Positions 34,301 to 64,000 of a stretch of 64,000 nt of DNA are shown here, in pieces. Each line of letters opens with the position of its first letter. The first letter of the stretch is position 1. Position numbers and translations under genes: made by a program. Origin of the DNA: Yuukianura sp. NJ FZ-2021 (Eukaryota); the NCBI GenBank assembly GCA_046563655.1, contig CM102286.1, forward strand, positions 682,001 to 746,000. The letters are read 5' to 3'. A model generated the notes under the pieces. The model made no database searches and was not told the origin of the DNA. It saw nothing but the letters and a program-made list of their open reading frames with translations.

Positions 34301-37300
34301 TTCATGGTGGTGGTAAAAATTCAAAGTTTGTTCGCTTTGATTTTCTTTAACTGGTTGGGCAATACCTAATGTTATTTCGATTTGGAACTTTTTATTTCAG
34401 TGCATCGTAGTCATAACTATTATAAAGCCATTTTTTTAAATTTTCATACCAGTTCATTGGTACCAGTTTTTCAGATTGGTACCAACATTGAGACCAATTG
34501 TTGTCATTTTCATTTTAAAACAAGCGAGCTAGTACTCAACCTGTTAAAGAAAATTAACTTTTCGTTGTCAAGGAACCTTGAAGAAATTAACCCGGTCTCT
34601 CTCAATGGCGCCAAAACCAAATACAAGCCAAGGCTTTTACAAGAACTTTTACGGTACTCTCAAAAAGTCAAGGTAAAAACTTGGCCTAACCTAACACTTT
34701 TAGCTCAACTTTTGAATTCAGCCGCCCCTGAACCTCACTCCGTTTGACGTCAAAGAAAAAACGGAGCTGAGCCAAAAAGGAAATGTTCCAAAAATTACTC
34801 ACAGAGTAAATAGAAAAGATTTCCGTTTTCACGACACTCTAGCGTTAACAAAAAATTAAAAAGACTAGAAAAAAGTAGTTTCTCACAGAAAGTTCATCTT
34901 GTTCTTTTGTAACTCAAGTATGTGCTAGTCACTACAAAATGTAACATCTCCATCATCATTACTTTGACATTCAGTCTGTTCTCACACTTTGACATTCTCG
35001 CCTACTCCTAAATCTCATCACTCTTCTTTTAACTTATCTCGCCTCCTTTGACATCTTCAACTCTGGATTCCATTTCATGATCTTCATTCATTCCAACAAA
35101 CTCAACTTATGATCTAATTCCGCTAAAAACGCCACAAGAATCTCTGATCATCGTGACCTCATGACCGAAAAAACCAAAGTTCGAACTTCGGTTCATGAAA
35201 TTGGCAAATCCGAAAAAAAAACTTTCCAATTCGAAAGTTCAAAGTTTTGAGAAATGTGAACCACGTTCTCTCTTACCTGATTCAAAGTCAGGAAACGACG
35301 CGGAATGATTTGGGAAGAAAAAGTTATCGTCCAAGTTCCGTCGCACTGCAGTACAACACAAAAGAAAAAAAAAGTTAAAAGTTGAGTGGATTCGAACTCA
35401 TGACTTTTCTGATTCAGCCTTTGGCCAAAACATCAAAACATGACCGGAAATTGAAACCAAAACTTTTTTTTTGAAGAAAACTTTTTTTTTCAAAAAACTT
35501 TTTTGTGAACTCTTACGTGGGTTGACGGCACTCCGTCGTTTGGGGGCATCTGACTTTGATCGGATCTTGTCTTTGATTTGTCTCAATCGATCCTTCTTTT
35601 TCAAACCTTCCGCTTCAGCTCCAACACAAGCATCTTGGATTTGAACTACGCAGTTACGATGAACATAAATGTTGCAATCTACACAAAAACCAAAACAAAA
35701 AAAATCATAATTTCAAAATATCAGGGTTCGAAGGCTGTAACTTACGTCCTGTAACTTACGTAACTTACGTACGTAAGTTACGTAATTTTCAGAGGGGTTG
35801 TAATTTTCGAAATTTTCATTCTTTTGAATTTTACGCGGGAGGGAGACAGCGTAGGAGTCAGGGGAGCGGGAGAAGTCCAAAATAACAAAAGAGCAGTGAT
35901 TTAGAGGATTATTTTTTCGTTTTTTTCTCGAGCAGACTGCTCGAGAAATACCAGGATATTCTTCGAGCAGTCTGCTCGAGAAATACCAGGATAATTCTCG
36001 AGCAGTCTGCTCGAGAAATACCAGGATATTTTTCGAGCAGTCTGCTCGAAAAATACCAGGATAATTCTCGAGCAGTCTGCTCGAGAAATACCAGGATATT
36101 CTTCGAGCAGTCTGCTCGAAAAATACCAGGATAATTCTCGAGCAGTCTGCTCGGGAAATGCCAGGATATTCTTCGAGCAGTCTGCTCGAGAAATACCAGG
36201 ATAATTCTCGAGCAGTCTGCTTGAGAAATACCAGGATATTCTTCGAGCAGTCTGCTCGAGAAATACCAGGATATTCTTCGAGCAGTCTTCTCGAGAAATA
36301 CCACGATAATTCTCGAGCAGTCTGCTCGAGAAATACCAAGATATTCTTCGAGCAGTCTGCTCGAGAAATACCAAGATATTCTTCGAGCAGTCTGCTCGAG
36401 AAATACCAGGATATTCTTCGAGCAGTCTGCTCGAGAAATACCAGGATAATTCTCGAGCAGTCTGCTCGAGAAATACCAGGATATTCTTCGAGCAGTCTGC
36501 TCGAGAAATACCAGGATATTCTTCGAGCAGTCTGCTCGAGAAATACCAGGATATTCTTCGAGCAGTCTGCTCGAGAAATACCAGGATATTCTTCGAGCAG
36601 TCTGCTCGAGAGATACCAGGATAATTCTCGAGCAGTCTGCTCGAGAATGGCAACGTAGTTTTCGGCAAAAATACCGTAATTTTCGAACCCTGCAAAATAT
36701 TTTAAAAATTTTAAAAATTCATTTCCTACCTGAACACTGGAGGCCTTGTGGTGCAACTCCCCAAAGAATTTTTCCGCAAATATTGCATACTGTGTAGGAA
36801 TAAATCAACTGCGGACTGAAATGATGTCCATTGTGCGTAATCTGAGAAAAAAACATACCAACACTTTTCAAAAACCTTGTTCCAAATTCCTTCCTAAAAC
36901 TTCAAAATTTCAAAATTTTGAATCTTCCCTCACTTTTTTGTGCCTGCTCATAAACCTAGCTTTGACAGACTTCTCTTTGGACACAAAGGAACCACATCGT
37001 TCCAGGACGGCATTAGATGAACTGTTTGGGCGGACCAAAAACTGCTTTTGCAGAATCGTTGACACGGCATTGATAATGGCCAGGGTTCGATCGTCTCCAG
37101 TCTTCTCGTACTCCTCACTAAAACCACAAACAAAAATCAAAATTTCATTTTCTTTCAAAATTTTGTTTTTCTTCAAAAATGCCAGTCTAAACCTCAGAAC
37201 CGACTGCCTAAATCTCTGAATATACTGACTAAACCTCAGAATTGACTGACCAGAAACTGTCGAGACGTGGGATGAGGTAAGTTTCGATGACTTTGGTCTC

Positions 37301-47465: not shown

Positions 47466-49978
47466 AGGTCGTTGACCTTTGCAATTGTTAACTTTTCCAA
47501 ATAAATTCAGACATAATATCATCAATTTGAGTAAGTAAAGGTCAAACAGTTCGAGGATACACAAAGGTCAATGACCTTAGATAGTTGACATAAATGTCAT
47601 TGACCTTTTTGAAAGTCGTTGACATCAAGGTCATTGACCTTTTTGAAAATGCTTAAGCGTCTGTTTTTGGTTTCCGGAATGACCCGAGTCTTCTTCCCCA
47701 ACTCCCACTGCTGTCTTCCCCCTCTTCGTCAATGACCTCGAGATTCTGTGCTTCGATTCTACTGAAAGCCTGGATGAGGTCTTTCACTGACCTCCTCACA
47801 GGCAAGTCAGCTGACAGGTCAAGGTCAATTTTAGCCAAGGTCACTGCCGTAGTAGCTCCGTTAGTCTCGTCACTCCCATCGGATGACGAAGTCATTTGTT
47901 CCGTAGGCGGATCTTCCAAGATCATAACGTCAAACGGATCATGCGCAGGTTCAGGCTGCTCTGGCGGGAGATCATGTGCAGAAGTAACTCCTGTGTTTGT
48001 TTCTCCATTTTGAATTACGTTTGGCACCAAAATTATGTCAGCCTTTGTGACGATTTCTGGAAGAGAAATGTCGCCAATGGTCGCCGTGACTCCTCCTCCT
48101 GCGTCATTCAAACTTGGAAACTCTGAGACACTCGCCCACCGAGCAATTTCGTCACTGCTTTTGCTCAACTGCATCTAACAAATGTTTTGAACCAAGAAGA
48201 ATCAAAATTTTCTTTTCAAAATTTGAATTTTTTTTTTCAAAATTTTGAATTTACTTTGCTACGCCACAACTGTTCACGGGATTTGCTCATGGTTTTGCGT
48301 AATCCTGCTCCGACGACTCTCTGCATCAATTTTTCTCTTGATTTTGTTCTTCCCGCGCTCAAGTCAAAACTACTTTTGCTTTTGTTTTTTATCCGAGTTC
48401 GATTTGAATTCAACCAATCATTCGACAGAGCAAAATTTGCTGTTGGACGTGACCTATAACAAAATTTTTCAAACAAGTTCAAAAAAAAAAGTAAGTTTTT
48501 AAAATTTTAATTAAGGAAATTTGTTTTCTACCTTGGATTTTTTTCTAACAAGGCTCGAATAAAGTCAATTCCAGCCAAACTGATATCATCAAACAACTCG
48601 TTTGGAAAATCAATTTCTGCAGTCAAAATGCTGTTGAACGTTTCTGCATCCGAATCTCCGCCGAACGGACTAAATCCAGTCAGTAACACGTAAGTTACAA
48701 TACCAGAAGACCAAATGTCTGCTTTCGTTGTCAGTTCACTGTAACTGAGGACTTCTGGCGCTAAAATTCAAATTTTTAAAAATTCAAAATATGGTGGCCC
48801 AGTGAGACCAACAAAATTCTAAACAACAAAAAACTTTTAAACAACGTTGTTAGGAAGCATCGCACGTACACGTGCGATTTTGAATTTTTTCTTACCGATG
48901 TAGTCCGGTGTTCCCACGACTTCTTTTTCACCAATCCCGACGACGCGGCTCAATTCAAAATCACAAATTTTGATTTGGCAATTTGGAAAATCTCCCATGA
49001 GAAGTAAATTTTGTGGTTTAATGTCCAGATGAGCGATGGATTTAGCATGGAGGTAGTCTAATCCTTGGAGCAACTGTGTTACGAATTTAGATGCTTGCAT
49101 TTCCGGAAGAACAATATCAGCATCAATCACCGATTGAAGGTCACCGCCTGGGGCACTGAGAAAACAAAGGTCAAGAGGTCATTGACCTCAAGTACTAAAT
49201 TTTTAAGAGTAAACTTACAATTCCATGATTGTAACTAAGTTTTTGTCAGTGACAAAAGCATCTTTGAACGTGATGATGAAATTGTTTTTGAGTCGCGACA
49301 ACAAGCGAATTTCGTTGTAATTTTCTTTCCGTTTTGGACTGAATTTGGCTGCGTAGAGTTGACCCGTTTTGCGTGACCTTGCACGTCGAACGGACGCATA
49401 AAATCCACTACAACGGAAAAAGCGAACGATAAAAAGTCAATTCAATTCAAATGAAAACATGACTATGAAAAAAATTATTCAAATTTTTCTTAATATTTTT
49501 AAATCTTACGTTGCAAAAGCACTGCGTTCAACTTCGTAAAATAATTTAAAGTCGCTTATCCGCGGTTCCTCCATAGTTTTAGAACTTAAATGTTTGGAGC
49601 TTAAAGTTTGACAAAGTTCAATTGAAATCAAAACTAGATTTTTCTGTACACTTTGAAAAACTTTTATTCCAAAACTCAAGCAACTGACGGTGCAATTCAA
49701 CTGTTGGTTTCTACCAATTCAAAATTCAACAAGGTCAAACATACCAAACCATAAATGGCAAGGTCCTTACAAGGGAATTCTGCAACAACTAAATTCATTT
49801 CGACAAAAAAAAAGTTTTGTCGTCGGCATTTTCCTCATTTTTGTTGAAAACATTTGAAGCTCTATTTTTCTACATAAAATTCTACAATATTTCTAAACAT
49901 GACTAATTTGTGCCTCATAAGTGACCTCTCTCAATGTCATTGACCTCAGTGACCGCGAACTGTAAAGGTCATTGACCT
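47466..49978. promoter_or_regulatory. Cluster of IR1 nuclear-receptor palindromes (EcRE-like AGGTCAnTGACCT)
   Basis: Perfect sites at 47565-47577, 47628-47640, 49176-49188, 49966-49978; one-mismatch sites at 47466-47478, 47594-47606, 49934-49946. Confidence 0.5.
47653..49574 (-). CDS. Drak: DRAK/STK17-like (death-associated protein kinase-related) Ser/Thr kinase; exons 49574-49510, 49407-49219, 49155-48896, 48760-48532, 48453-48255, 48174-47653
   Basis: YAAKF, HLDIKPQNLLLMGDFPNCQIKICDFELSR, GTPDYIAPEVLSY, DIWS.G..TYVLLTGFSPFGG motifs typical of arthropod DRAK; acidic low-complexity C-terminal exon. May be a paralog rather than the Drak ortholog. Confidence 0.85.
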
Positions 49979-51370
49979 CAGTCGACCTGAATGAGCACGA
50001 GCAGCTGCATTGTGTTGCCAATGGCGTATTCCATGTAGAGTGTTATCGTGTCATTAGTAATTCGCATGTAGCTTCCCATTTTGCCCGAAATTGGTTGGCA
50101 AGACGTCGTTGCACATCTTCTGACTAGTGCGCCGCTCCGATTCTTGCCCTCTTCCTTGCGTGCTGTGATCCGCCAATGTGACAGAAGCGCCTGACTTTGT
50201 TGAAACATTTGCCCACCCATGCGCATGATTGCAAATTCCATAATCCATAGCCAAATTTTGACAATAGGGAAAATCAAAAAGGCGGCAAGAGGGAGATGGT
50301 GGTATAATTTAATTGCCAAAACACCAAAAATCACATGGCAGGTGAACATAAGGAATGGAAACAGCGTCAGAAGCAGCGGGGAAAAACTAATGTTGAATTT
50401 CCGATTGAGGACTTGAAGTGAGCGGTAAATGAAAAATTGGTCGTCAAATGTCAGAAATTTTAGTTTTGAGTTAGTTTCTTCTTTGACAGTTCCGGCTCTA
50501 CGACACAAAAATGTTTAGTAAATTTTCAAACTAGAAAAAACATAATCTTTTAAAAAAAGTTTGGGTTTTATGCCTCATTGCGACGAAAATTCTTGAATTG
50601 ACTCGAAAGTAAACCATCAAAATTTCTGTCACAAAGAAAAGTTGTTGCCAAATGCACAGACACATACAATAATCCAGTATTCCAAAAAATGACAAAACGG
50701 GCCACGTTTCTCGAAGAGTCGGGTCAAGCAGAGAGCTGATGAATTGCGGCGACGCAGCACAAGAGTACACGATGAAAAAATTCACCCAAGTTGATATCCA
50801 CGGGGAAAGTGGAAAAAGTTGTAACAAGAATTCAGCGATGTCTGGACGTTCCGGTACGGTTACTTTCACTTTTTTATTTACATTCTTTTCCACCTTTCCA
50901 AGTCTTTCTGAAAAATTAGTTTTTGATTTTAGGTGCGCGGCCTTTATAAAAAAAAAATAAGTTTAACAATTTAAAAGTTAAAATTTGTTAAATTTACCCT
51001 CCATCTTCTGCATGAAGAAAAAGAGACTGTTGATAAAGTCTAAAATTTCTTGTCTTCTGTGGTAAAAGCAAAAGTGACCAGCGACAACAAGCGCCAATCC
51101 GATGACCCATGCCATGTGAATGGCGAAATGAACTTTGTTGATGTCATTCATATCTCGACTGACCAAAATTTGGCAAAAACGAAAGTGGATGAATCCACAA
51201 TACAGGACTTCGCCTAGAAAATTACAATTGTACAGAAATTTGTCTTTGGCGCTTGAAAAGTGGCGCATTAATCCGGTGGTTTTATCGAATTCGTACGGAA
51301 TTGCTTTCACTAGAGAACTCAATCTGATTTGAAGTTTGACGCTTTCCAGTGATTTTTTGTGTAAAAGCAT
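49978..51370 (-). CDS. Divergent 7TM chemoreceptor-like protein, pair 2 copy A; exons 51370-50998, 50907-50574, 50497-49978
   Basis: Multi-TM protein; YRSLQVLNRKFN and C-terminal SCQPISGKMGSYMRITNDTI resemble GR/OR-like receptors. The intron 2 donor is GC where the paralog has GT. Confidence 0.65.
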
Positions 51371-52023
51371 ATCTTTCTCCTCCTTCTCTAAAAAGTGTAA
51401 AACCAAAACCTGGAAACTCAAATGTCAAATGTGCTAGGGAATTTGAAAATTTTCTGACCCATTTATATCTACAATTGTGAGATACGATCAATTTAGTGAA
51501 CCATGTGGAAATTTGGTTTCATTTTTTAAATGCACCGAAAAGTTTGTCACACCCTCTTTACTGCCAAATCTAATAATAGCTTCGCTATTATAATAACAGG
51601 CATTAAGTTGACTAACAATTAAATTTAAACTGTTTACCCGAAACTTTGGAAATTAAACTGAAATGGACGCTTACTTTTCGCGTAATTTTCTCAATTTTTG
51701 GTAAAAAGCCAATTTCGAATCTGCCAGGAACTAGTTTCGAAATTGTATTTGCGGAAAAGTGGTTCAAGACAAATATCAGATTTCGGTTCTTATTTCCTAT
51801 CTCAGATTCGGTTGTAAGATTTCCATCTAATATGGGATACCAATCGACAAGGTTCCACGTGGCACCTTAAGTAAATAACTTTGTAACTTTGTATAACGTA
51901 CGTTATACAAAGCTATTTTTTAAAACTTTTAAATTTTTAAACTTTCTTTGTCTTATTTTCTAACAGCAACTAACTAAGATATTCCTTTCCGATGTCCTTT
52001 CAGGGCAAAGGTCATCATTGACT

Positions 52024-53606
52024 TTAGTCCACCTTCATGATCATAAGCAGTTGCATCGTGCTGTCAATGGCATACGACATGTGGAGTGTTATTGTTTCAT
52101 GCGTAATGCGCATGTAGCTGCCCAGGTTTGCTGCAATTGGTTGGTAAGAAGTTATTGCCGATTTTGTACGCAGTGCGACTGCGTCTGCTCCAGATTTCCC
52201 GTCGTCCTTGCGTACAGTAGACCGCCAGTGTGCTAAAAGTGCATGGCTTTCTTGAAACATTTGTCCCCCCATGCGCATGATTGAAAATTCCATAATCCAC
52301 ACCCAGATTTTGACGATTGGAAAATGCAAAAAGACGAAAAGAGGGAGATGTGAGTACAACTTAATGGCAGCCACCCCGTAAACGACGTCGATGCTAAAAA
52401 GAGCGAGGGGATACAGTGTTAAAAGCATAGGGGAAAAACTGATGTTGAATTTCCGGTTGAGTACTTGAAGAGAGCGGTAAATCAAAAATTTGTCTTCAAA
52501 TTTTAGCGGCTTTATGATTTCTCCCTCCACTTTTCCGGTTCTAAAAAAAGATTTGTTGATAAGTTCCCTTCATTTTCACCACTGATTTTTAGTTTTGATT
52601 TTGAACGTTTATGTCAAGGTTCCTAAAAAAAAGATACCCTTTTCTACACCATGTTGACCAATAACTCGAAGTTTTAAAATTTGTTTGAAAGTAGCAAATC
52701 TGCCTTTCTATGGTAAATGGGATTGGTGCTAAATTGGTGCTAAAAGTTGTTTGAAGCAAGATTTTTGAAATTCCTGAGTTATTAGACAACCTGTTGTAGG
52801 AAATATAATTCGGTTGCCAAGGAACCTTGTTTTATGTATTACCGCATTGCAATAAAAATTCTTGAGTTGACACGAAAGTACACCATCAAAATGCCTGTAA
52901 CGAAGAAAACTTGTTTCCAAATGCAGATGACTAAAAAGTAATCCACCATTCCAAAAAATGACAAAACTGGAAAAGTTTCACGAATTTCGGGTTCAAGTAG
53001 AGAGGTCACGAATTGTGGCGACGCAGCGTAAAAGTAAACGACGAAAAAATTGACCCAAACTGTAATCCACGGTGAAATTGGAAAAATTTGTAACAACAAT
53101 TCGGCAATGTCTGGACGTTTCATTGCTGCTGCTTTTTCATTTTTTTCATCTTTTTCACCAATTGCCAGTTTTTCTGAAAAGAAATTCTAGGTTTTAGGTC
53201 CCGCATTTTGAAAAATTGCTGAAATTTTACCTTCCATTTTTTCCATCAGGAAAAAGAGACTGTTGACAAAATCAGCAACTTCCTGTTTTCTGTGGCAAAA
53301 GCAAAAGTGGCCAACGACAATAAGCGACATTCCGGAGACCCAAGCGACGTGAATGGCCAGATGAACTTTGTTGAGTTCTTCGAACTCTCGCGTGGCCAAA
53401 ATTTGGTAGAATCGGACATAGACGAATCCAGCATACAAAAGTATGCTTATAAAGTTACAAGCGTAGAGAAATTTGTCTTTGGCGCTTGTAAATGGTGTCA
53501 TATGTCCTGACCTTTTGTCTACTTTGTACGGAATTGCTTTTACAAAAGAACCCATTCTGAGCTGAAGTTTCACTCTTTCCAGTGATTTTTTATGTAGCAA
53601 AAGCAT
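52024..53606 (-). CDS. Divergent 7TM chemoreceptor-like protein, pair 2 copy B; exons 53606-53231, 53173-52843, 52540-52024
   Basis: In-frame GT-AG splicing; clear paralog of 49978-51370 with the same intron phases (1, 2). Confidence 0.7.
52641..52829 (+). mobile_element. Helentron/HINE-like short element (third copy) in intron 2 of receptor pair 2 copy B
   Basis: TTTCTACACCATGTTGACCAATAACTC ... GAGTTATTAGACAACCTGTTGTAGGAAA imperfect inverted repeat, then hairpin CAAGGAACCTTG (52818-52829) and a T run. Confidence 0.5.
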
Positions 53607-54000
53607 TTGTGACAACTTTTTTCTTTTTTTTTTAATCAAATTTTGCAAATTCAAATGTGCTTCTCAGAGTTTGACAAGTTTTCAGGTCAATTTATACTCC
53701 AATTGTTTGTACAATTTAATTTTGTTAAACATGGCACAGTCCAAGGTAAATAGAATACTAGTCTTGTTAAATTTTGTTTAACAAATTAAACTGTACGACT
53801 TAACTGTATCGATTACCGGTGGGAGTCCAAATACAAATTGGACAAATTGAAACTCTTGTAAAGTAAGAAATTGGCTTGAATTTTTCATACAAAGTTTTTA
53901 AGGGCATGAGGTTCCTAATCACTAAATTTAATTGAAAAGATCAATAATTGGTTTTATGTTTCTTGACTAACATTAACAAACAAATTTTTTAGTGATTAGA

Positions 54001-61550: not shown

Positions 61551-62960
61551 TTATTCACTATCCTGTGGATACACCACTCCTAGTTGCTTTCGTACAGATT
61601 CCATAATTTCAGCGAAGAGTAAAGTGTCATGGTGGGAAACAATTGGACTCTGGGTAAGACCTACACAAAAATTTTAAGATTTTCAAAAACTGAAAAAAAA
61701 ATTGACACTTTTTTTTATACATGAGTGCTTGAGCTTACCATTTTGAATACATCGTCGTACTTCGTTGCACTGGAAGGCCAATCCAACGCTGTTTCCAAAG
61801 TTAAATTCACGTCCAACTTCCGGCAATGGAAAGTCAGTTACTCCCGCCGGCGTTTCGACTCTGGTAGAACTCCAAAACGGACTGTGAAGCTATAAAAGGA
61901 AGATTACGGTAAAAACGATTTTGAAAAAATTATTCAAGACATATTTCTACGCATAATACCTTAATCGTTCCTTTTGTTCCAACAGCGAATGCTTCGTTCG
62001 GTAGAGTACCGTGGCTATGGGTGATGAACGTTCCAGTTTTGCCACCTTCGTAAAGTAAAGTGACACTCGTACTTTCATCAACACCGTCAGTATTTGTGTG
62101 TCCACCGGCAAGTATCTTGACCGGTTTTTCACCATTGAACACATACGAGATGAACTGGATACAGTAAATACCAATGTCCAGAGTTGTACCACCGCCAAGA
62201 TCCTTCAACCTTAAAAATGGTAGGCAACGTTTAAACAATTTCTGAAAACGTTTTTCAAAAATTCAAAATCTACTCAAAACGTTTTTATTTGAATAGATTT
62301 GATGCTTACCTCAGGCGATCGACGTCCTTGATCGGTACTCCGAAAGTTACAAAAGCTTGAACCACATCACCAATAGCTTTTGATTCCAGTTCTTCTCGTA
62401 GTCGCTGATAAGACGGGAAGAATCGACTCCATACTGCCTGATAGATACAGTTTAAATTGTTAAAAGGTTAAGTTCTTAAAAGTGAAACATTGTTGAAACG
62501 TTAAAGTTTACCTCCATGAGGAACAATTTCTTTTTCTGCGCATAGTCCAGTACTTCCTTCGTTTGTTTGACGTTCATACACAGCGGTTTTTCGCATAGAA
62601 CGTGTTTGCCATGATCCAGAGCAAGGAAACATAGTTGACGATGGGTGGGATTAATTGCACCGATGTAAACTACATCTGTAATTGCAATTACAATTAGCAT
62701 TAATTACTTAATTACTTTAGTTATATTATGCGTTAATGATGTTATGCTTTGACTTTACCTACTGATGGATCCTTGACCAATTCTTCATAAGATCCATAGG
62801 CTTGTGGAATGGAGTGATCCTGTGCAAATTTTTGAGCAGATTCTAAATTTCTGGCAGCAACTGCAACGATTTGATGCTCGTTTGGATCCAGCGATAGAAA
62901 CGACGTTACAAAGTCATTTGCAATTTTTCCCGTACTGATGATTCCCCATTTTGTTGCCAT
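61551..62960 (-). CDS. DHDH: Trans-1,2-dihydrobenzene-1,2-diol dehydrogenase-like (Gfo/Idh/MocA); exons 62960-62759, 62675-62512, 62437-62310, 62209-61960, 61889-61739, 61660-61551
   Basis: MATKWGIISTGKIANDF, AYGSYEEL..DP.VDVVYIG, KHVLCEKPL, FLMEAVWSRFFP, LGGGTTLDIGIY, LGVVYPQD. Confidence 0.92.
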
Positions 62961-63424
62961 TTTTAAGTAGTTGGAAATTGAAATTTTCAAAATTTGTAAA
63001 TTTTATTTGTGGAGGTGATGATCGTTTCGTATGAAACCAGTTTTTATAGAGCGTCTGATACTTAAATGTAGTAAACTGAACCTCTTGAATTGTACTTGAT
63101 GATCTCACGTCGCGTGATTATGGCAGAACAAACAAGGGTTTACAAGTGTGAAGTCATTTTGTGCTAAATTGAATTAAACATAGTTTAACTTAATCTTAGT
63201 AAAAGTGGGTATACTGTCGCTGTCACAATTTGTCAGATAAAAGTGGTTACCGTATGATCCACAATTCGAGAAAATTCATTTTTTATAGGCGCCTTTAAAA
63301 AAATTATCTCATGGAAGGCAGATAAATTCTTCTTGCGTGTTCGACGACTGTTTGAGTTAACCAATTAAATTCAAATTCCTACTATAATAATTATAATTAA
63401 CTTTATTTATTAGGTTGTGTTAAA

Positions 63425-63500
63425 TTCTTGAAGCAGAAATACATCACTGTGAAAGGGTCACTTTGTGCTTTGCCTTTGACAGGTCATGCGCTTCACAGAA
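63425..63500 (-). promoter_or_regulatory. Eukaryotic SECIS element (type II) in the 3' UTR
   Basis: Minus strand: uucugUGAAGCgc AUGAC CUGUCAAAGG c AAA gCACaaaGUGac CCUUUCACAG UGAU guauuucu GCUUCAagaa. This gives helix I, the UGAC/UGAU non-Watson-Crick quartet, a 10-bp helix II with one mismatch, apical AAA and a mini-stem. It lies 57 nt after the stop and before AATAAA (63407-63402). Confidence 0.82.
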
Positions 63501-63557
63501 GTTGACAACTTTTTCCCCCCATAATTTTATAATTTTATGAATTTGTAATTTTATACT

Positions 63558-64000
63558 TTAAGAATTTGCTTTGAGACAGTCCAGCACTTGTGTCATTGTG
63601 GGTCGATCGAATGGATCTTTGGAATTGTACTGGAAAACGACAGTTCCATTTTTATCCAGAATCACATCTCCCGCCAATTGGAATGGATCGTCTCCAGGAT
63701 CTGGACAGCGACAAGTGAGACCAAACTTCTTAATTGCAGTTTTAACTGTGTCCGAACATCGGCTCTATTCAATACAATTTTCAAATTAACTAAAAACTTA
63801 ATATTTTTCCTGTAAAATTTGTTTTGTTTACCTGGAACATGGATTTGAACATTCCGAAATGCGTAAAAGCGTGACGGCCCTGCGACTGATCCAGATAAAA
63901 ATCAAAAATAAATCCCGTGTCTTCTCTCCATTGCAGTGCATCGGATTCTATTCCATACGACACTATGACGACCCTGCATCCAATGGCATCCAACTCGCTC
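63558..64000 (-). CDS. SELENOL: Selenoprotein L-like / AhpC-TSA thioredoxin-fold protein, 3' portion; exons >64000-63832 and 63764-63558
   Basis: SELDAIGCRVVIVSYG...WREDTGFIFDFYLD...FGM | ...DDPFQLAGDVILDKNGTVVFQYNSKDPFDRPT matches the recalled C-terminal half of SelL/PRXL2-type proteins. A SECIS follows; the redox motif is outside the window. Confidence 0.68.

Follow-up and report, generated by a model that had tools for sequence, protein, structure and literature searches.

Introduction

Selenoprotein L (SelL, SELENOL) was reportedly described by Shchedrina et al. in 2007 as a selenoprotein of fishes and aquatic invertebrates. It is the standard example of a diselenide protein. It has been treated as restricted to aquatic organisms, with diselenide-reducing systems proposed as an aquatic trait (PMC2397514). 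Its two selenocysteine (Sec) residues are linked by a diselenide (PMC13134290, PMC2397514), and one SECIS element serves both of its UGA codons (PMC3316567). SelL is present in non-tetrapod vertebrates (PMC13134290), in Ciona (PMC2874816) and in five of the six invertebrates listed in Table 1 of PMC3473315. For a centipede, Table S26 of PMC4244043 gives 20 selenoproteins, SelL not being among the entries of that table, and the consulted part of a springtail genome paper gives counts of SECIS elements and tRNA-Sec only (PMC5644144). No hexapod SelL was found in the literature that we searched; reviews of insect and metazoan selenoproteomes lay outside that search. In a preprint, the SelL orthogroup is almost exclusively aquatic and is one of 130 habitat-informative families drawn from ordinary proteomes (bioRxiv 2025.10.02.680026); the word "almost" leaves room for land-living members. 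SELENOL is also badly annotated, with under 1% correct in Ensembl (PMC12822975).

The DNA examined here, called the window, is 64 kb long (G000:C4:682001-746000). The stretch at its right edge matched one place in the genome in a DNA search and, judged from sequence comparison, very likely belongs to a springtail gene for a SelL (SELENOL)-type selenoprotein that is functional and present as a single copy.

Gene structure and transcript form

The predicted SelL gene lies on the minus strand, comprises three exons and two GT-AG introns with 311 codons in all, and runs past the right edge of the window (Table 1). In exon 1 the ATG is followed by a helical N-terminal domain of ~140 residues, after which the thioredoxin-like domain begins and UxxU is encoded. 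In-frame TGA codons had been expected beyond the right edge, with upstream exons encoding Cys only as the contrary case; exon 1 has two of them, 95-106 bases past the edge, in the SelL-type context L-R-Y-F-K-U-P-P-U-R-I-H-L. The second UGA and the AUGA of the SECIS are 478 nt apart. Hydropathy of the predicted protein is flat, with neither a hydrophobic N-terminus nor a membrane helix.

Table 1. Features of the predicted SelL gene; plain numbers are window positions, others as prefixed.
Feature	Position	Strand	Basis or remark
Exon 1	G000:C4:746062-746622; L002:3062-3622 (561 nt)	-	Past window edge; ATG, UxxU motif
First TGA (codon 173)	G000:C4:746104-746106	-	In-frame, exon 1
Second TGA (codon 176)	G000:C4:746095-746097	-	In-frame, exon 1
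Intron 1	G000:C4:746000-746061 (62 nt); window base 64000 is its last base	-	GT-AG; joint in X4 contig
Exon 2	63832..63999 (56 codons)	-	Middle of AhpC/TSA-like domain; PF13911 E 4e-4, below cut-off
Intron 2	63765..63831 (67 nt)	-	GT-AG; 67 skipped in run X4 contig
Exon 3, coding part	63558..63764 (68 codons + TAA at 63560-63558)	-	CxC (C261, C263), C-terminal strands
Complete type II SECIS hairpin, helix I included (closing 63500/63425)	63425..63500	-	Fold and covariation
SECIS core: AUGA, 10-pair helix II, AAA, 3-pair mini-helix, UGAU	63443..63487	-	Anatomy and covariation
Two overlapping AATAAA (63411, 63407)	63402..63411	-	Candidate polyadenylation signal

Runs X1, X3, X4 and X5 were compared with this structure. 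A 1044-base contig of run X4 aligns in three pieces that end exactly at the predicted splice sites and keeps both TGAs; it covers L002 3633-3062, ends inside the SECIS (window 63461) and has one differing letter, away from the TGAs. Since this contig lacks the introns it is best read as transcript-derived, though the kind of run X4 is DNA by guess, its sample is common to X1 and X3, both of which are unspliced at the SelL gene, and no RNA run containing the SelL stretch was listed among the runs. Run X1 covers the whole stretch as one piece and may be the source of the genome. Run X5, labelled as a different organism, has low-depth coverage of the hairpin region; its differences there were listed incompletely, and it was excluded from the covariation analysis. 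A contig of this run (organism B; L002:3247-3800) spans the 5′ part of exon 1, with a repeated part and at a depth far above the rest of the gene, and it is possible that this is a partial duplicate.

On the 3′ side, a minus-strand Gfo/Idh/MocA oxidoreductase gene (dihydrodiol dehydrogenase-like; window 61700-62963) starts ~440 bases beyond the SelL poly(A) signal. On the other side, past the window edge, a small minus-strand gene (L002:3780-4286) ends ~160 bases before the SelL start; it encodes a secreted-looking Cys-containing protein for which no Pfam family was found at E<0.5.

An orthologue on a metagenome contig

A search of exon 1 against 1.84 billion representative proteins listed two. 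One, P0004 (44% identity, E 6e-35), stops precisely where the first TGA lies, as would be expected if the gene caller reads TGA as a stop. The other, P0005, is a repeat protein with a match over 22 residues and was dropped as chance. The frame of the window gene ending at the first TGA gave nothing in an exact look-up in the protein collection. The original prediction had also held that automated annotation probably truncates this gene; truncation is indeed seen for P0004, and it is this orthologue that supplies the evidence.

Of 183 pattern matches, one was confirmed as a locus, the metagenome contig from which P0004 derives (L032). The two TGAs and the U-P-P-U recur there, as do both GT-AG introns, placed at the same codons, and the contig has its own hairpin with the same core, with one AATAAA 3′ of that hairpin. 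No synteny was found between the window and this contig beyond the SelL gene. The shared introns suggest that its source is a related arthropod.

Identity between the two genes rises from 0.42 across the 169 codons that precede the first TGA to 0.77 across the 138 that follow it, and pN falls from 0.41 to 0.14 across the same point with pS near saturation on both sides (0.77 and 0.74, respectively). With conservation higher behind the TGAs and synonymous sites saturated, the region behind the TGAs is coding, and its 135 codons are under strong purifying selection. Of the 60 residues between the second TGA and the Met that follows, 42 are identical, so a restart of translation at that Met offers no explanation. 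Six cysteines are common to both proteins, including C246 and C261-x-C263.

The SECIS hairpin

A textbook type II SECIS had been placed between the stop codon and AATAAA, and all of its named elements were found there on the minus strand. AUGA (63487-63484) lies 70 nt 3′ of the stop, the apical AAA (63471-63469) follows 12 nt past AUGA, and UGAU occupies 63446-63443. Helix II pairs 63482-63473 with 63456-63447 through nine Watson-Crick pairs of ten and one C-C mismatch, and the mini-helix is CAC/GUG, as in type II. The hairpin therefore has the RUGA/AA/GA core, canonical spacing, helix II and mini-helix of a type II SECIS.

A SECIS descriptor written for this analysis (RUGA, AA after 11-13 nt, 3′ GA, at least 9/10 helix-II pairs) matched two places when both strands of the window were scanned, with nine Watson-Crick pairs at the SelL hairpin only. 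It matched once in the 158 nt behind the window stop and once in the corresponding 123 nt of L032. It also matched 1 of 5000 dinucleotide-shuffled versions of the 158-nt stretch, a figure that is optimistic because the descriptor was written after the element had been seen. The minimum-energy fold gives helices I and II with an unremarkable energy (z -1.34; 17/200 shuffles as good), and for the L032 helix folded by itself z is -4.5. Between the window and L032, five of the ten helix II pairs are compensatory, four are unchanged and one is the window mismatch, and 25 of 26 cells pair. This level of compensation was reached in 17 of 500 shuffles, and slid controls gave 0-1 such pairs, in a comparison of two sequences with few events that was restricted to the part from AUGA to the 3′ GA, a choice that biases the alignment towards structure.

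An Rfam scan (E<=10) found no SECIS families in the window hairpin or in that of L032, and the SelL hairpin does not reach the gathering score of RF00031 (SECIS_1). As a control, RF00031 was run genome-wide and gave two matches, both below cut-off, 3′ of SelT-like and TrxR genes; it omits three hairpins that the descriptor accepts, those 3′ of SPS2, the SelU-like gene and the Sec-containing glutathione peroxidase (Sec-GPx). The covariance-model check proposed with the original prediction thus had a divided outcome: SECIS_1 fails here, while it accepts no element above cut-off anywhere in the genome, and the compensatory pairs in L032 speak for the hairpin. Because RF00031 gives no match, we file the SelL hairpin as a SECIS by anatomy and covariation and not as a member of that family.

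Selenocysteine machinery and host lineage

The genome contains a tRNA-Sec gene (71 bits against a cut-off of 47; anticodon TCA), SepSecS exons, eEFSec domain III, an SPS gene of SPS2 type whose active site has a TGA in frame, and a PSTK-like frame, the PSTK and SelD models scoring below their whole-protein cut-offs. SBP2 was not found: in a PF01248 search, 7 of 13 fetched loci were translated and all resemble other L7Ae proteins, and a motif pattern had one match, equal to the control and not SBP2-like, in exon-by-exon searches that can miss SBP2. Of the machinery that had been named for checking, tRNA-Sec and eEFSec were therefore recovered and SBP2 was not. Many dispersed RPL30-like copies (L050-L056, L058), several with stops, lie on five contigs.

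Several other selenoprotein genes were observed. SPS is encoded at a single locus (L041, L038; G000:C7:363153-367621, minus strand) with an in-frame TGA and a SECIS-like hairpin, and none of the four SPS matches is a separate SPS1 locus. A TrxR gene (L007; G000:C3, near 12765618, minus strand) ends in Asn-Cys-TGA-Ala-stop followed by a SECIS-like hairpin; its flanking residues are unusual, the usual TrxR tail being Gly-Cys-Sec-Gly. Among three glutathione peroxidase loci (L044, L045, L046), L045 combines an active-site TGA with a SECIS-like hairpin, and the other two have Cys. A gene end with a SECIS that RF00031 matches at 28 bits (L006; G000:C7, near 1484635) is SelT-like, a family name that we take from the sequence. 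A SelU/PRXL2-like UxxC gene (L034:1079-1698; G000:C6, near 1033673) has a SECIS-like hairpin at 1792, and we presume it to be SelU from its motif. The contrast originally drawn with the small selenoproteome of Drosophila was overstated, given the 20 selenoproteins of the centipede and the several others of this genome; the part that remains notable is SelL in a hexapod.

A glycerol kinase exon 3.5 kb from SelL matches Folsomia candida at 79% and Orchesella dallaii at 77%, followed by a barnacle (70%) and a mayfly (67%) as the next named matches, among the best 120 of 8000 scored. The host is therefore most likely a springtail, as judged from one exon of one neighbouring gene, which narrows the arthropod of the original prediction. 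Some springtails are semi-aquatic.

Elsewhere in the window, a 303-codon open frame without introns (1026-1937, minus strand) resembles what we take to be an arginase-family formimidoylglutamase, and it is possible that this gene was horizontally acquired. Positions 35700-36800 hold a tandem repeat array that is open in several frames on both strands. Two clusters of paralogous multi-pass membrane genes (2600-6300 and 49900-53700) presumably resemble gustatory receptors.

Family assignment

In an NCBIfam scan, exons 1-3 matched NF040769 (SelL-related redox protein) in order and no other NCBIfam family, with single-exon scores of 14.7, 16.0 and 38.2 bits against a whole-protein cut-off of 120 in a model built for prokaryotic proteins. 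Exon 3 corresponds to NF040769 positions 132-173 (E 1e-9), and exon 2 has weak matches to PF13911/PF00578, below cut-off. The collinear matches on all exons and the UxxU motif agree with the earlier description of a SelL-like thioredoxin-fold gene. NF040769 also matches the SelU-like paralogue of this genome (29.5 and 28.2 bits) and therefore cannot decide between SelL and SelU. Two in-frame UGAs arranged as UxxU, by which SelL is recognized, occur in the window gene, the X4 contig and L032.

A pattern derived from the motif gave 24 loci in prokaryotic genomes, 20 of them full-length UxxU proteins that are 25-31% identical over the domain; their agreement in the motif is by construction, because the pattern was made from that of the predicted SelL. 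Nineteen of the 20 come from Chloroflexota/SAR202/Dehalococcoidia records and one is unlabelled. The remaining four matches were dropped, L012 as truncated by a stop few codons past the motif and L020, L026 and L027 as short frames. UxxU SelL-like genes (L008-L031) are common in SAR202/Dehalococcoidia genomes. Four of the 20 proteins were scanned with NF040769, and all four exceed its cut-off.

A profile of the 20 bacterial proteins scores the window SelL at 69 bits, L032 at 72 and the SelU-like paralogue at 35; mean BLAST scores against the same proteins are 63 bits for the window SelL and 35 for the paralogue. Near-invariant bacterial columns (74 in total) are shared at 29 positions by the window SelL, 30 by L032 and 24 by the paralogue. 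A five-member bacterial profile matches AhpE/BCP peroxiredoxins and ResA in the PDB. Direct comparison of the window SelL with the SelU-like paralogue gives 29% identity over 99 residues (42 bits). In a protein-cluster atlas, exon 3 falls near unnamed bacterial clusters and one PRXL2A fragment cluster. Word-index protein searches with exon 1 and exon 3 yielded no match (18 and 27 candidates, which is weak evidence), and exon 1 against the 1.84 billion representatives returned no animal SelL. The assignment as an orthologue of SelL rests on the motif and the bacterial relatives.

The N-terminal domain was examined separately. The predicted model of residues 1-120 is a helical bundle with moderate confidence (mean pLDDT 60, pTM 0.59), and fold searches with it returned generic helical bundles only (best Foldseek E 0.35; best Z 8.5). 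No named relative was recognised in the protein-cluster atlas or in sequence searches. We speculate that this fast-evolving helical domain probably serves partner binding.

Proposed mechanism and alternative explanations

We consider it close to certain, from the gene structure and its conservation, that this would be a Sec-recoded UxxU gene, and orthology with SelL is highly probable. By the established eukaryotic pathway, SBP2 would bind the GA quartet of the SECIS and eEFSec would bring Sec-tRNA, with one SECIS serving both UGAs as in fish SelL. The predicted product would be a soluble protein of 311 residues without a signal peptide, in which the helical N-terminal domain is joined to a peroxiredoxin-like thioredoxin fold that carries its CxxC site as UxxU. 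By analogy with fish SelL, the two Sec could be linked to each other and switch between the diselenide and diselenol states, which would make the protein most likely a low-potential cytosolic thiol-disulfide or peroxide reductase. Speculatively, the diselenide may be reopened by a built-in relay made up of C246 and the CxC at 261/263. The gene would most likely have been inherited vertically from aquatic pancrustacean ancestors.

An unlikely alternative is that this is a true UxxU selenoprotein that is not the orthologue of fish SelL, being either a SelU/PRXL2-type protein that acquired another Sec or a SelL-like gene of bacterial origin that arrived by horizontal transfer and was then equipped with a eukaryotic SECIS, introns and an N-terminal domain. 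Transferred genes are abundant in springtails, NF040769 fails to separate the window SelL from the SelU-like paralogue, and the search of the representative proteins had P0004 as its only real match (one of two listed) and no animal SelL. UxxU has also arisen separately in SelW (PMC7539508). Against this explanation, the window SelL scores twice as high with the bacterial UxxU proteins as the UxxC SelU-like gene does and aligns with that gene at only 42 bits, and its identity to the bacterial proteins is low (27%). A prawn transcript has been labelled SelL by similarity (PMC4411767), which makes a pancrustacean source plausible.

That the SECIS is a relic, or the locus a pseudogene, with translation stopping at codon 173 to give the helical N-terminal protein alone or nothing, seems very improbable. 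P0004 does end at the first TGA, Rfam has no SECIS match and SBP2 was not found in the genome searches; however, such an end is expected of any gene caller that takes TGA as a stop, conservation is far higher downstream of the TGAs than upstream, and L032 has kept the TGAs, splice sites and helix II pairing despite saturated synonymous sites. The UGAs might instead be read as another residue (Cys or Trp) through leaky termination or a changed code, and stop read-through has been reported to be widespread in insects (PMC13278127), but they fall exactly at both Cys positions of the CxxC site in a gene with a conserved-core SECIS and in a genome with a tRNA-Sec gene, and we regard this explanation as extremely improbable. 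A recoded SelL gene remains the reading that we prefer.

Significance and comparison with known systems

The springtail gene is a known family in an unexpected lineage, a hexapod. With somewhat less than even confidence, we suggest that it is the first SelL of a hexapod and of a land animal, kept by springtails under strong purifying selection long after they left the water, that SelL passes for an aquatic marker partly because gene callers end proteins at UGA, and that a soil animal must be able to reduce a protein diselenide, maybe with C246 and the CxC as relay. A conserved springtail SelL would place the loss of SelL in hexapods no earlier than the origin of insects, and would give a small, culturable animal in which to find the function of SelL. 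Since the mechanism is already known, the finding widens a distribution and adds no new kind of system, and if the host is semi-aquatic the surprise shrinks further.

Compared with type II eukaryotic SECIS elements (RF00031), the window hairpin is alike in AUGA, the AA 12 nt on, the 3′ GA, the 10-pair helix II, the mini-helix and helix I; it differs in scoring beneath detection by the Rfam model, and the L032 copy has GGAU instead of UGAU. With SelU/PRXL2 (FAM213) proteins of the AhpC-TSA_2 family (PF13911; L034) the predicted protein shares the fold family, the position of the redox motif and a SECIS-like hairpin 3′ of the gene, but both the window SelL and L032 have UxxU where SelU-type proteins, L034 included, have UxxC. 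The bacterial NF040769 proteins share L-R-x-F-x-U-x-P-U-R-x-H-L, the collinear domain and the C-terminal Q-L-x-G-D and D-R-P; they are ~185 residues long and without the helical N-terminal domain and introns, and the rows inspected lack C246 and the CxC. The nearest described system is SelL of fishes and aquatic invertebrates, likened here by description, which has in common with the springtail gene a pair of Sec separated by two residues, a single SECIS serving the pair and a peroxiredoxin-like thioredoxin domain, and from which the present gene differs in its hexapod host and in an N-terminal domain without a named relative.
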